Shown here: one piece after another, positions 11,184-16,194 of the stretch
Layout of the letters: each line of letters begins with the position of its first letter
Position numbering within the stretch: the stretch's first letter is position 1
IMG/VR virus record: IMGVR_UViG_3300020352_000786
Coordinates: 1 to 64,000 of that record
DNA length: 64,000 bases
Origin: a virus
Taxonomy: Duplodnaviria; Caudoviricetes
Direction: 5' to 3' (one strand)
Made by a program: the position numbers and the translations under genes
The notes under the pieces: generated by a model
Database searches by the model: none
What the model was told of the DNA's origin: nothing
What the model saw: only the letters and a program-made list of their open reading frames with translations

Positions 11184-12227
11184 ATGTCAGATATACAAAA
11201 AATTAATACTGACAAGTCTATAGATAATGGTGGTATTACGGTTAGATATCCATTCGGAGAAGGAGAAGGTCGTGATGCTAAGATATCTAGTCAAAATATC
11301 AAGACTCAAGCAAGTAATTTATTAAATAAGTTTAAACCATTAAGAAGCTTTGAAGCAAAGACATTCTCATCCCTCTATTCTATGTTAACAGACAAAACTT
11401 TGGGAATATATCAATCTGACTTACCGTACCCTAGCACATCTAACTTTACATTAAAATCACAATTAGACTTGGGAATAGGTGTTTTTTCTGTATTTAACGA
11501 GCATTATATTTTTAATTATAACAATTATATATACGTGTGTTGTAATAATAATAATATTAAATATATAGATGCTGATTTTAATATATCTGAAATTGATATT
11601 GGTTACAGGTGGGACCAAATCTTTTTTAAAGACAATGATACTATTTTTACCTTATTAGATAATAAGATTTATCAAATTGATTTAACAAATAATACAAGCT
11701 CTGTTTATGGAACATTAGACAGCGCAATACCATATCCTGTAGACGATATTAAATATGACAACATCAATAACAAATTTATATGTGGGTCAAGCGAAAAAAT
11801 ATTTATTAGCAACAATAGCTTGACCTTGCTCGCTACCTTGAACAATACAGTGCAAACTTTATTCAATAACAAAAACGGCACTTTTATAGCATCTAGACCT
11901 TTAGACGGAAATCATGATGCTCAAGACAATTTTCAAATAGACTTATCAGATAATTCTATCACAACATTAACAGATAACAAAAACTATCATGAATATATAG
12001 ATTTATTTTGTAATAACTACATAAAGTCTACCGACATAACAGATGAATTATATAGCGGTTCTACTTTATTGGGCAGTCTAACTCTGTTTGGAGATGCGTC
12101 TAATGATGTGTTGTCCATAAATCAGGCTACAGACACTATTGTTGTAAGAGAAGCAGACAAAAGAAATGTCTATTCTTTAACAAATGCTCTTAATGGTAAA
12201 CTTTCTAAACTTGTGGAGTTAGATTAA
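11184..12227 (+). CDS. Hypothetical protein, probable beta-rich virion component
   Basis: 347 aa; repeated short hydrophobic strands separated by D/N turns (propeller-like); first gene of the adhesin cluster. Confidence 0.6.
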   Translation: MSDIQKINTDKSIDNGGITVRYPFGEGEGRDAKISSQNIKTQASNLLNKFKPLRSFEAKTFSSLYSMLTDKTLGIYQSDLPYPSTSNFTLKSQLDLGIGVFSVFNEHYIFNYNNYIYVCCNNNNIKYIDADFNISEIDIGYRWDQIFFKDNDTIFTLLDNKIYQIDLTNNTSSVYGTLDSAIPYPVDDIKYDNINNKFICGSSEKIFISNNSLTLLATLNNTVQTLFNNKNGTFIASRPLDGNHDAQDNFQIDLSDNSITTLTDNKNYHEYIDLFCNNYIKSTDITDELYSGSTLLGSLTLFGDASNDVLSINQATDTIVVREADKRNVYSLTNALNGKLSKLVELD

Positions 12228-12820
12228 TGGGTGTACTTGTTGTAGCACAAAGCGGCGTGTCGATCACCCCAACACCAACACCCAACAGGTCTGCAACCCC
12301 TACACCAACACCAAGTGTTACATCTACTCCAATAGTAGTCACTGTCACCCCAACTGCTACTTCTACAGTAACGCCCACTCCTACTATTACCAAAACACCA
12401 ACCCCCACACCAACAACATCTCCTAGACCAATATCTATACTGACCCATCCTGAGTCCCAAACAATAGATATAGAACAAACACAAAGTGTAATGTTGCGTA
12501 CAAGTACAGATAATAATTCTACTCATTATTATTCTTGGCAATACTCTGACAATGGAGGTTCTGACTGGAATTTTATTACAATAAGTGGTTTATCTGTGCC
12601 GTCTAAGAAATCTAATCCAACATCCTACTTATTCTTAAATAATCTCACACCCGCTCAACACAATAATCAATACAGATGTCAAATCACCAATGAAGTATTT
12701 ACTACAGAAACAAACGTGGCAACACTTACCATACTGACAGATATCAATATTACAACACAGCCCACAGGCACTACTATTTCAGGTAGTGGAACAGCAACAT
12801 TTTCTATAGGTGCAGAATAA
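12227..12820 (+). CDS. Pro/Thr-linker plus Ig-like domain protein
   Basis: TPTPTP linker; Ig motifs ILTHPESQT, YSWQYSDNGG, QYRCQITN, VATLTI; ends with the start of a second Ig (ITTQPT..TATFSIGAE). Confidence 0.8.
   Translation: MGVLVVAQSGVSITPTPTPNRSATPTPTPSVTSTPIVVTVTPTATSTVTPTPTITKTPTPTPTTSPRPISILTHPESQTIDIEQTQSVMLRTSTDNNSTHYYSWQYSDNGGSDWNFITISGLSVPSKKSNPTSYLFLNNLTPAQHNNQYRCQITNEVFTTETNVATLTILTDINITTQPTGTTISGSGTATFSIGAE
12266..12424 (+). repeat. Low-complexity Thr/Pro (TP)n linker
   Basis: TPTPTPNRSATPTPTPSVTSTP..TPTPTITKTPTPTPTTSP, encoded by ACN CCN repeats. Confidence 0.85.
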
Positions 12821-15800
12821 TGTCAATTAATTATCAATGGCAAGTATCTAAAGATGGAGGAGATAACTACTCCAATATTAATTATACAGGAACTATTTTA
12901 AACTTAAATAGAATCAAAAGACATCAAGACAATAATCTTTATAGATGTAGAGTCAACAGAGATGGTAGCGCCAAATATAGGTACAGTAATTCCGCTAAAC
13001 TTACAGTCTTTCCAGATATATCTCTTGGCAAATTACCCAGTAACATTTCTATAGACGACGGAAATCTTTCGCTAAGTCCGACAGTTTCTGTAGACAATAG
13101 TGCTACAACTTCTTTTCAATGGCAGTATTCAGATAACGACGGTGATAAGTACTATAACTTACCATCGCAAACAGGATCAGGATTAACTCTTACAGGACTA
13201 TCTTCCGCCAATAAAAATTGGCTATATAAATTAAAAGCAGATAGTTACTATTATTCAGGTATTGTCAACACAGTATTTTCAAACGCTGTCAAGACGAATA
13301 TTGAAACAGATGTTCCAATTATACAAATATGGAGACAACCACAGCATTACTATATAGACACTCAATCTCAAGAAGCGAGAGCAGAATTTGATGTAACTGT
13401 ATCAAGCACAGGATTAGATGCAAATGGTATTCCGACTACTTTTTTCGAGTCAAGCGGAATTAGCTACGCTTGGGAACGAACAATAGATAATATTAATTGG
13501 GAACCTGTTGCTACCCATCCTAGTGGACAAAACAAATTATCTATTTATGATCTAATAAAAGACGAAGAAGCTAGCAGTAAAACAAGTTGGCAGAATTACT
13601 ATCAGACTATTGGAGCTAAATATAGAGTAAACGTATCTAAAGATGGGCATACTGTTATGTCAGAAAGCGCTTCATCATTAGACGGCATTAATCTTCCAGA
13701 AACTACTAATTCTGACTATAGTTCCAAAATATATAGTATGAATCACTTTCATATTAGAACCTGCAAAGGTTTGACCTTGGGTCTTTTTAGTAATTGTCCT
13801 CAAATTCTAGAAAATAAAAATAGAAGAATTAATCTTAAACTTTTAAGCTTAGAATCTAATGGAGACAAATATGACTTAGTTCTAAATATGATCAGAGCCC
13901 CAGAAAATAATGAGACCAAACCTTACAGTATTGCTATAGAAAACGTTTCTTTATTTAAAAACAACATTTTACAACAAAATGCTGTAACAAATTTTAATTC
14001 ATCGGAAAACAAAAAAACACCATTTACTATAAACGAATCCGCCGGAGTGCAATCCTTATCAAATAATATTTCTGCTGCTGGAGCAGGCATAGTTTATGGA
14101 CAAGGCTATTGCATCAATCTGTGCAATCCTTTACACGGCAATAATTTATTGAATGCTAATTATAAAAACTTTATTAGCAATTGTATAGCTAAGTCTAGCA
14201 ATAAACAATATGGTGCTATTAAAGTAGGTTTTACAACTACAGGTAGTTCGTCTGCAGATACTGATTTATTATCTAAACTTCCAACTAAAATAAAAATTCA
14301 AAACGGCAATGACGTCAGTGTAGATCTGAAAATTAGTTATGAAATTATAGGTAGTGCTAGTCCAATATCAAAACTTACATTATCCGATATAGATGTCGTA
14401 ATATTAAATCAAGGATATAATTGGTCTTCTAGACAATTCACCGAAGCAGAGCAGTTAGCTTTAAAATACTATGTAAATGATGGTGGAGGATTAATTACAT
14501 CAGAATGGGTTTTATGGAATGCTTATTACGGGAAATTCAATCATTTAAAAGAAGTATTTGCTGCAGAACCTAATAGATATTACAAGACAGAGAAAGAGGT
14601 TCGATATTATCAATATATTCAAGATAGTATTATCAATAATAACGTTGAAAAAGATTTTAAGTTTGGTCCTGCCAATGTTGCTGGAGGAACAGAAACTACT
14701 CTAGATTCTTTTAAATCTAAAGCACAGATTTTTTATATTAAAGATCCTTTACCTATGGAAATAGGTTTAAGGGAATCAACATTTAATATTTTAGATTTAT
14801 TCTCCTTTACAGCAAAAGAAACCGAAAATACAACATCAGTTTCTTTAGATGGACTTTCAACATTCTTTGAAGGGTCTTTTCATTGGTTAGGAAAAGTAGA
14901 TACAGATATAAAAATTGGAGGTGCTTTATATTGGATTTATAAATCTTTAATAGAGCATTATAGGAAAGCAGAACCTGGTACTACTAAGCCTAATTCAGTT
15001 TGGTCTTTAGGAAGACTGTTAGTTGGAGGCACAACAGATGGTATCAATCCTATATTGAAAGAGTATGATTACGACATATCCGATTTCTTATTTAGTGAAA
15101 GTCAGCTTCCTTCAGCTCAAATTTCTCCAGAACAAGAACTTACTCCTAATGATAATTTTTGGAAAGATTTATCCAAACTTTTAGGAGGCCTCAGACCCGT
15201 TAATAGCTATTATAGAGATCACAGAGAAATTGTTAAAGATAGTATTGCTATAACAAAGCCATTAATAGGAGGAACTACAGCGGTTAAACCTGTATCGGGA
15301 GAATTATCAATGCCTATTTCTGTTGTTAGTTCATCAGATTTGCCTATATCTTTTACTTTGCAAAAAGCTAGCGGAGAATCTTTTGAAGATGCTTTTTCTG
15401 GTACTTTTAATGGTCATTCTATCTATATATCAGGTATTGAATCTTCTGATATTGATGATTTGCTTGATAGAAGAGTTGTATTTAAAACACCATTAAACGA
15501 TGAGGGTGTATCAACTCAATTATTTAGGTTCCAATCTCAGGGGCACGCAGGAATATTACGTCGTCCTCCGTTAAACAACCAAGCATACGTTCAAAAATTA
15601 AATCATAATGGGTCAGGACTGTTTAAAAAAACAATCACTCATACCGGAGTAAATGGTATCACATCAGAAGGACCTTCTATTTCATTAGGGTCTTCTGGTA
15701 ATTTAATTAGTTGGCAATATTCTTATGATGATAAAAATTATTATAATATTCAAAGCGGAGGATCAATATCTGGTACAGATTGCATCTTAACTCTTAATAG

Positions 15801-16194
15801 TGGAGAATATAATAAATTTATTAGATATAAAGCCTACCCTCTTCGTAATAATATAACTTCGGACAATGTAACACCAACCATTAATTCTATTGCATATAGT
15901 TCTTCCAATCTTTATGATCCACAAAATGATATATTTTTAGATAGACAATACAATAATTATTATACAAGTGGAGGTGTATACTATTGCGATCTATATGTGT
16001 CTGTAGAAAATACTAATGATACTTTTACTTTAGAAGATATTACTTGGGAACAGTATAGTTCTACTACAAATACATATAGCAGTGTCCCTAACACTTCAGG
16101 TCATAATGTATTAGTGGCCAGTGGAGTAAAAGTTGCTTTATTGGATAATTATAAGTTTAGAGCTAAAATAAACAACAGGATTTTTTACACATGA
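12820..16194 (+). CDS. Large multi-Ig-like-domain virion/adhesin protein
   Basis: Repeated Ig motifs YQWQVSKDGG..YRCRV, FQWQYSDNDG..YKLKA, SYAWERT..YRVNV, SWQYSYD; central DVVILNQG..ALKYYVNDGGGLIT segment. Confidence 0.75.
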   Translation: MSINYQWQVSKDGGDNYSNINYTGTILNLNRIKRHQDNNLYRCRVNRDGSAKYRYSNSAKLTVFPDISLGKLPSNISIDDGNLSLSPTVSVDNSATTSFQWQYSDNDGDKYYNLPSQTGSGLTLTGLSSANKNWLYKLKADSYYYSGIVNTVFSNAVKTNIETDVPIIQIWRQPQHYYIDTQSQEARAEFDVTVSSTGLDANGIPTTFFESSGISYAWERTIDNINWEPVATHPSGQNKLSIYDLIKDEEASSKTSWQNYYQTIGAKYRVNVSKDGHTVMSESASSLDGINLPETTNSDYSSKIYSMNHFHIRTCKGLTLGLFSNCPQILENKNRRINLKLLSLESNGDKYDLVLNMIRAPENNETKPYSIAIENVSLFKNNILQQNAVTNFNSSENKKTPFTINESAGVQSLSNNISAAGAGIVYGQGYCINLCNPLHGNNLLNANYKNFISNCIAKSSNKQYGAIKVGFTTTGSSSADTDLLSKLPTKIKIQNGNDVSVDLKISYEIIGSASPISKLTLSDIDVVILNQGYNWSSRQFTEAEQLALKYYVNDGGGLITSEWVLWNAYYGKFNHLKEVFAAEPNRYYKTEKEVRYYQYIQDSIINNNVEKDFKFGPANVAGGTETTLDSFKSKAQIFYIKDPLPMEIGLRESTFNILDLFSFTAKETENTTSVSLDGLSTFFEGSFHWLGKVDTDIKIGGALYWIYKSLIEHYRKAEPGTTKPNSVWSLGRLLVGGTTDGINPILKEYDYDISDFLFSESQLPSAQISPEQELTPNDNFWKDLSKLLGGLRPVNSYYRDHREIVKDSIAITKPLIGGTTAVKPVSGELSMPISVVSSSDLPISFTLQKASGESFEDAFSGTFNGHSIYISGIESSDIDDLLDRRVVFKTPLNDEGVSTQLFRFQSQGHAGILRRPPLNNQAYVQKLNHNGSGLFKKTITHTGVNGITSEGPSISLGSSGNLISWQYSYDDKNYYNIQSGGSISGTDCILTLNSGEYNKFIRYKAYPLRNNITSDNVTPTINSIAYSSSNLYDPQNDIFLDRQYNNYYTSGGVYYCDLYVSVENTNDTFTLEDITWEQYSSTTNTYSSVPNTSGHNVLVASGVKVALLDNYKFRAKINNRIFYT

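Follow-up and report, generated by a model that had tools for sequence, protein, structure and literature searches.

We analyzed a stretch of 64,000 nucleotides (nts; hereafter the window), namely the first 64 kb of the 75.6-kb IMG/VR viral contig IMGVR_UViG_3300020352_000786 of an uncultured marine phage, and found that one immunoglobulin (Ig)-like unit is cut in two at the boundary between two adjacent genes, ORF1 and ORF2 (ORF, open reading frame). Judging from the profile matches described below, ORF1 holds strands A-B and ORF2 holds strands C-G of this unit. The two products are probably separate, coupled proteins that would be tethered to each other by completing the split Ig fold in trans, an interpretation drawn from the comparison of sequences. 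The record has 33% G+C and a CheckV completeness of 54%, and no match was obtained by megablast among GenBank phages.

The split was evaluated with an Ig profile, a hidden Markov model (HMM) of 95 positions for which 50 Ig units were taken from long, unrelated proteins (P0012-P0021). Residues 70-169 of ORF1 matched HMM positions 2-94 with 40.7 bits and thus form a whole Ig unit, and the unit next to the half-domain of ORF2 (residues 64-165, positions 8-91) is also contained in one chain, as the initial annotation had noted for the intact units flanking the junction. Residues 174-196 of ORF1 covered only positions 2-24 (8.7 bits, independent E-value 6e-4), and residues 2-63 of ORF2 covered positions 31-94 (42.3 bits, independent E-value 2e-14). 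When the two chains were concatenated in silico, the match extended over positions 2-94 with 62.2 bits (independent E-value 1e-20), which was the top-scoring unit of the locus. A split of this kind is far from what chance would produce. HMM positions 25-30, the variable B-C loop, were absent from both pieces, and therefore the cut sits in this loop. The split unit retains the core motifs of Ig domains, YQWQ with the Trp of strand C and YRCRV with the Tyr-x-Cys of strand F, and W7, Y41, R42 and C43 were invariant in alignment A2.

Inspection of the boundary showed that ORF1 ends with ...TATFSIGAE and the TAA stop at 12818-12820, and that ORF2 starts with MSINYQWQ from the ATG at 12820-12822, in the -1 frame relative to ORF1. 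The initial annotation described a gene from 12227 that ends in the first Ig strands and a gene from 12820 that opens, through the TAATG overlap and in the -1 frame, with the remainder; both the coordinates and the profile agree with this description. The features of the two genes are listed in Table 1. A motif similar to the AGGTG upstream of ORF2 is found at -10 to -14 in approximately half of the genes of the window. Among the close relatives with DNA, 12806-12824 was invariant and the neighbouring synonymous sites varied, and this invariance is explained by the Shine-Dalgarno (SD) motif and the start codon of ORF2, which lie there.

Table 1. Features of ORF1, ORF2 and their junction (coordinates in the window; aa, amino acids)
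Feature	Coordinates	Strand	Description
ORF1	12227..12820	+	197 aa; 12-aa N-terminus, Thr/Pro-rich linker, intact Ig unit, opening two strands of another unit
Thr/Pro-rich flexible linker of ORF1	12263..12424	+	residues 13-66; T/P alignment columns invariant; predicted local distance difference test (pLDDT) 39-65, zero secondary structure
Intact Ig-like unit of ORF1 (predicted I-set type)	12425..12736	+	residues 67-170; HMM, Foldseek; Pfam I-set E 0.034, below the cut-off
Donor half-domain, strands A and B	12737..12817	+	ORF1 171-197, ...INITTQP...TATFSIGAE; HMM positions 2-24
AGGTG, Shine-Dalgarno-like	12808..12812	+	7 nts 5' of the ORF2 ATG, within the final ORF1 codons
TAATG stop-start overlap	12818..12822	+	TAA of ORF1 and ATG of ORF2; putative translational-coupling junction
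ORF2	12820..16194	+	1124 aa; half Ig unit, more Ig units, central region of unassigned fold, C-terminal Ig-like units
Acceptor half-domain, strands C to G	12820..13008	+	ORF2 1-63, MSINYQWQ...YRCRV...AKLTV; HMM positions 31-94
Next intact Ig unit of ORF2	13009..13314	+	residues 64-165; HMM positions 8-91, 24 bits

The position of the cut is conserved on both sides of the junction. The ORF2 homologues with identities of 38-57% begin, without exception, with M[SAT]INYQWQ. In an exhaustive search of 1.84 billion representatives, the true ORF2 orthologues (31-57% identity, with the central region in common) all had 0-32 leader residues and then opened at strand C, and none of them had strands A-B in cis. 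On the upstream side, ORF1 homologues down to 35% identity all end directly after strand B. The cut point was kept down to 26% identity, the value for the ORF2 orthologue of L022/L021, a 238-kb contig; this protein starts with MINYKWQ and is colinear with ORF2 from residue 2 over 821 residues (E 2e-40). The upstream protein of L022 contains a series of Ig units that ends with ...TATFSIG, followed by a Thr/Pro tail of 37 residues. In L022 4480-4700 the two genes share one frame by chance, with two in-frame TAA stops and 57 nts between them.

Both orphan halves were present in adjacent genes in all six lineages for which DNA was available, though the junctions differ. The genes overlap by TAATG in the window clade and are separated by 57 non-coding nts with two in-frame stops in L022/L021, by 3 nts in L064 and by 46 nts in L070/L076. 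In L059 and L068 the donor A-B half is internal to the upstream protein, where a long linker and more protein follow it, and the downstream gene opens at strand C. Related genomes, to which the initial annotation had looked for a check, thus keep the split. Two further loci were set aside, L034 as an unrelated Ig/RCC1 protein and L020 as a GC-rich gene of ordinary tandem-Ig type. No viral loci came from scans with P0033 and P0059, and the one with P0054 gave mostly Thr/Pro low-complexity matches.

The degree of conservation was compared between the half-domains and the rest of the proteins. Residues 1-63 of ORF2 had a mean pairwise identity of 0.66, which placed them 11th among 1062 windows, versus 0.48 over the full protein; residues 171-197 of ORF1 had 0.63, versus 0.48 for the intact ORF1 unit. 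By this measure of sequence divergence, the half-domains are more tightly constrained than the parts around them.

We propose the following mechanism for the two genes. An ancestral tandem Ig unit would have been cut in the B-C loop. ORF1 and ORF2 would be produced from one mRNA by coupled termination and re-initiation, using the UAAUG overlap and the AGGUG SD motif 7 nts upstream. The plug of ORF1 would be a C-terminal hairpin of 27 residues made of strands A-B, and the socket of ORF2 a half sandwich of five strands, C-G. The hairpin would most likely insert beside strand E of ORF2 and fill the open sheet, so that one Ig-like domain is formed from two chains, and this non-covalent joint would tether ORF1, with its flexible Thr/Pro linker and one Ig unit, to the large multi-Ig ORF2. 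Completion in trans was one of the two explanations offered by the initial annotation, and it gains from the comparative evidence above, since the cut is kept to 26% identity, the six lineages retain both halves and the half-domains are the more conserved parts. A role of the two proteins in a fibre or adhesin is suggested by the multiple Ig units, the Thr/Pro linkers and a solved relative that is a tail protein.

Alternatively, ORF1 and ORF2 may be two separate proteins whose halves do not pair, the split being a gene fission that was tolerated and then frozen. The ORF2 half would then be stabilized by self-association, by the next Ig unit or by some other partner, and the ORF1 tail would be disordered or used otherwise. 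We regard this main rival as possible but less likely. Pairing is what we infer from sequence, and several observations weigh against it. The ORF2 half-domain alone was modelled by AlphaFold2 (AF2) at moderate confidence (pLDDT 72-81) in the absence of a partner, and it is therefore possibly stable by itself. The donor half is trailed by a linker and a domain in L059 and L068 and by a Thr/Pro tail in L022, L064, L070 and L076, and therefore the plug need not be terminal; on the acceptor side, leaders of 11-32 residues precede strand C in some orthologues. The hairpin alone scores weakly on the Ig profile, with 8.7 bits here and 0.8-4.4 bits in the distant lineages, where it was recognized by its motif and position. 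With regard to an association with the virion, PHROGs named no tail or head gene in the neighbourhood of ORF1 and ORF2 (19 window proteins). Unpaired halves, however, do not readily account for the retention of both in adjacent genes in every one of the six lineages at identities down to 26% and across rearranged junctions, nor for a conservation that exceeds that of the neighbouring intact Ig units. If the tail of 27 residues were vestigial, some lineages should have lost it, and none has.

The structure models are compatible with completion of the fold in trans. In the AF2 model of ORF1, residues 1-65 were disordered, residues 70-170 formed a beta-sandwich at pLDDT 80-91, and residues 171-197 were poorly placed at pLDDT 56-60, with two short strands at 182-184 and 190-192. 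The model of residues 70-170 matched Ig I-set and V-type domains in Foldseek (3so5_A, template modelling score 0.70; at least 500 matches with E < 1e-3), and the intact ORF1 unit is thus predicted to have the Ig I-set fold. In Pfam, residues 78-169 of ORF1 reached 14.7 bits (E 0.034) with I-set (PF07679), below the curated cut-off of 23.7 bits, and no I-set match was listed for ORF2. In the ORF2 half-domain the equivalent of strand E (approximately 24-31) was not modelled as beta, and strand E of the intact next unit was; this detail is weak evidence because the ORF2 model was built on a shallow alignment. Taken together, neither ORF1 nor ORF2 is predicted to complete the split Ig fold by itself. 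The whole ORF2 model gave tandem-Ig matches only in Foldseek, with pLDDT below 50 over about half of the chain, and the central region was too poorly modelled for a fold to be named.

Phage Ig-like domains can be appended to structural proteins by programmed frameshifting, and the initial annotation had offered a -1 recoding event as its other explanation, by which ORF1 would be fused to ORF2 at the TAATG overlap in at least some of the product. The arrangement here is alike in that Ig-like domains are concerned, the downstream frame is -1 and the overlap is a single base, and the invariance of 12806-12824 among close relatives could be read in the same way. When the sequence between the -1 frame stop (around 12784) and 12820 was read directly, neither an X XXY YYZ heptamer nor a homopolymer run for transcriptional slippage was present, in agreement with the initial annotation, which had seen no canonical slippery site; the T-run at 12800-12803 is missing from L005 and L016. 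The 80 nts 3' of the junction had a minimum free energy of -9.6 kcal/mol versus a mean of -9.3 for shuffled sequences (z = -0.12), indicating that the downstream RNA folds no better than shuffles. Unlike the frameshift-appended domains, ORF2 has its own ATG with a correctly spaced, conserved SD motif, and these two elements account for the invariant stretch. No fused ORF1-ORF2 protein was found in two large database searches. The decisive point is that distant orthologous gene pairs do not overlap and are separated by non-coding spacers, lying 3-57 nts apart with extra in-frame stops. The recoding explanation, which we consider very improbable, is rejected.

A third explanation would confine the split to a single metagenomic contig, as an indel from assembly or sequencing or as a recent inactivating mutation. 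It has in its favor that the contig is a metagenome assembly in which one missing base would restore a frame, but its chance is negligible given the identical junction in other loci, the contigs of independent studies described next and the dozens of database proteins in which these start and end points recur. The junction was identical in 11 further loci from different samples, which together with the window make up three lineages of the clade. The initial annotation had pointed to 12810-12830 as the place where an indel should be looked for; contigs of four runs from four independent studies, aligned to 12400-13300, had no inserted or missing letter across 12803-12833, and those covering the junction included strain variants with 10 and 37 differences. 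In a marine metatranscriptome library (run X19), two contigs within 12726-13016 covered the junction and the start of ORF2 and were colinear with the DNA, with the junction bridged by a contig of 164 nts, although DNA carry-over in the library is possible. These contigs are compatible with a single mRNA spanning ORF1 and ORF2, or with DNA carry-over. RNA runs X21-X24 contained next to none of the sampled words and are uninformative on expression.

Completion of an Ig-like fold by a neighbouring chain is known from chaperone-usher pili (Fim, Pap), in which an incomplete Ig-like fold is closed by the strand of a neighbour and the resulting non-covalent joint is very stable. The strand absent from pilins is the last one (G); they take the N-terminal strand of the next subunit, need a periplasmic chaperone and an usher, and polymerise. 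The initial annotation drew this comparison, and it holds for the principle, namely that a fold incomplete in one chain is completed by strands of the neighbouring chain, and fails for the strands involved, the polarity and the machinery. Here strands A-B are the missing ones, the donor would be the C-terminal hairpin of the preceding gene product, and the joint would be single and heterotypic. No chaperone or usher gene was named by Pfam (ORF0-ORF3) or by PHROGs (19 window proteins; virus proteins only), and no search aimed at such genes was made.

A closer parallel is found in the lactococcal phage Tuc2009, in whose crystal structure a 25-residue C-terminal hairpin of BppU completes a sheet of the 56-residue domain 2 of BppA, the composite resembling a titin Ig domain (PMC4742702). 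The sizes are similar, with a hairpin of 25 residues and a half sandwich of 56 residues there, and a tail of 27 residues and a half of 63 residues, joined at 62 bits, here. The two cases differ in that binding was demonstrated for Tuc2009, whereas for ORF1 and ORF2 it is suggested by sequence comparison, and in that the Tuc2009 joint is not described as a tandem repeat cut at a gene boundary. When the PDB was searched by sequence with ORF2 1-165 and the ORF1 family profile, neither BppU nor BppA was among the matches, the presence of these chains in the searched copy being unconfirmed. The resemblance to the Tuc2009 joint appears to be one of mechanism and not of family.

Among solved structures, the phage tail protein 9c2d_S / 9c3a is nearest in sequence to the Ig units. 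Positions 120-195 of the ORF1 family profile, which correspond to the end of the intact unit and the A-B half, aligned to residues 242-315 of 9c2d_S (full-chain E 6e-9; 21.4 bits and independent E-value 0.0013 for the aligned stretch). The repeat is of the same type, and the ORF1 tail falls on strands A-B of tandem Ig units that are intact; in 9c2d_S, unlike ORF1, these strands run into the rest of the unit in one chain and the domain is unsplit.

The plug was also found on much larger proteins, of which a search among longer sequences yielded a set of 649-1211 residues. These long plug-bearing proteins, of 649-1240 aa (P0045, P0047, P0049, P0053-P0057, P0059, P0060, P0068 and L022:917-4627), have a common C-terminal end, in which a Thr/Pro linker is followed by a single intact Ig unit and then by the orphan A-B half; several are annotated as YVTN beta-propellers and some have matches to PF04862/PF23098. 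Since this C-terminal arrangement is shared, the same plug is carried by very different proteins, and its occurrence on much larger carriers suggests that the joint is probably a docking module for exchangeable fibre or adhesin parts. On this view, the partners in which the A-B plug follows a Thr/Pro linker and an Ig unit would range from the 197-aa stalk of the window to proteins of 650-1240 aa that have beta-propeller and carbohydrate-binding-like domains. More tentatively, plug and socket could be a general exchangeable docking module in a large clade of big marine phages (130-240 kb contigs), with a constant ORF2-like N-terminal socket and diverse plug-bearing partners. If so, phages could exchange the genes of receptor-binding or accessory modules and leave the interface unchanged.

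Apart from the Tuc2009 joint, the literature searched did not describe phage Ig domains that are divided at a gene boundary, and it offered nothing relevant on beta-strand augmentation in phage tail fibres. BppU-BppA of Tuc2009 was the sole solved phage case in this literature, and it was not recognised there as a recurrent gene-boundary pattern. What is new relative to Tuc2009 is the cut in the B-C loop into two and five strands, the visible origin from a tandem repeat, the deep conservation and the plug on diverse carriers. If the halves pair, a naturally split Ig domain would serve as a heterodimerisation joint, and the position of the joint can be read from sequence alone because the gene boundary falls inside a recognisable repeat. 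Pairing would make it possible to predict, in uncultured phages, which fibre proteins attach to each other and in what order, and would explain the exchange of distal modules between phages. For protein engineering, a small pair of natural plug and socket (27 + 63 residues) would become available.

The boundaries on either side of the two genes were inspected as well. The boundary of ORF0 and ORF1 is also a TAATG overlap (12224-12229). The start of ORF1, MGVLVVAQSGVSITPTPTP (12227-12265), resembles ...NKILLLNSINVTPTPTP, the final strand before the linker in the long plug-bearing proteins, and from its sequence ORF1 looks like a truncated version of these proteins. The notion that the ORF0/ORF1 boundary also divides a domain which the long L022-type proteins have in one piece was dropped (BLASTP E > 5, hhalign probability 0.2), and no homology was detectable between ORF0 and the propeller part of the long plug-bearing proteins. 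ORF0, ORF2 and ORF3 could not be assigned a function from Pfam or PHROGs, apart from weak Ig or head-decoration-type matches.

At the boundary of ORF2 and ORF3, an ATGA overlap at 16191-16194, ORF2 ends with ...YKFRAKINNRIFYT and ORF3 starts with MSSYNTLYIDI, which looks like the missing last strand of an Ig-like unit. These ends are conserved in all the ORF2 homologues and in L022. The generic Ig profile reached 1.2 bits only at this junction and gives no support when taken alone.

Two minus-strand ORFs of 67 and 105 aa (12205-12541) lie opposite the Thr/Pro linker; their translations are of the GVGVGV type, and they are by-products of the repetitive ACN/CCN codons and not genes. In ORF2, residues 500-618 showed weak Pfam matches (E ~0.05) to GIFT/LBP_M-type domains. 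Residues 694-805 (14899-15234), around IKIGGALYWIYKSLIEHYRK, are the sole non-Ig part of ORF2 that is still recognisable in the very distant relative L064 (residues 696-805), and in L070/L076 the match covers only the first 23-63 residues of this stretch.

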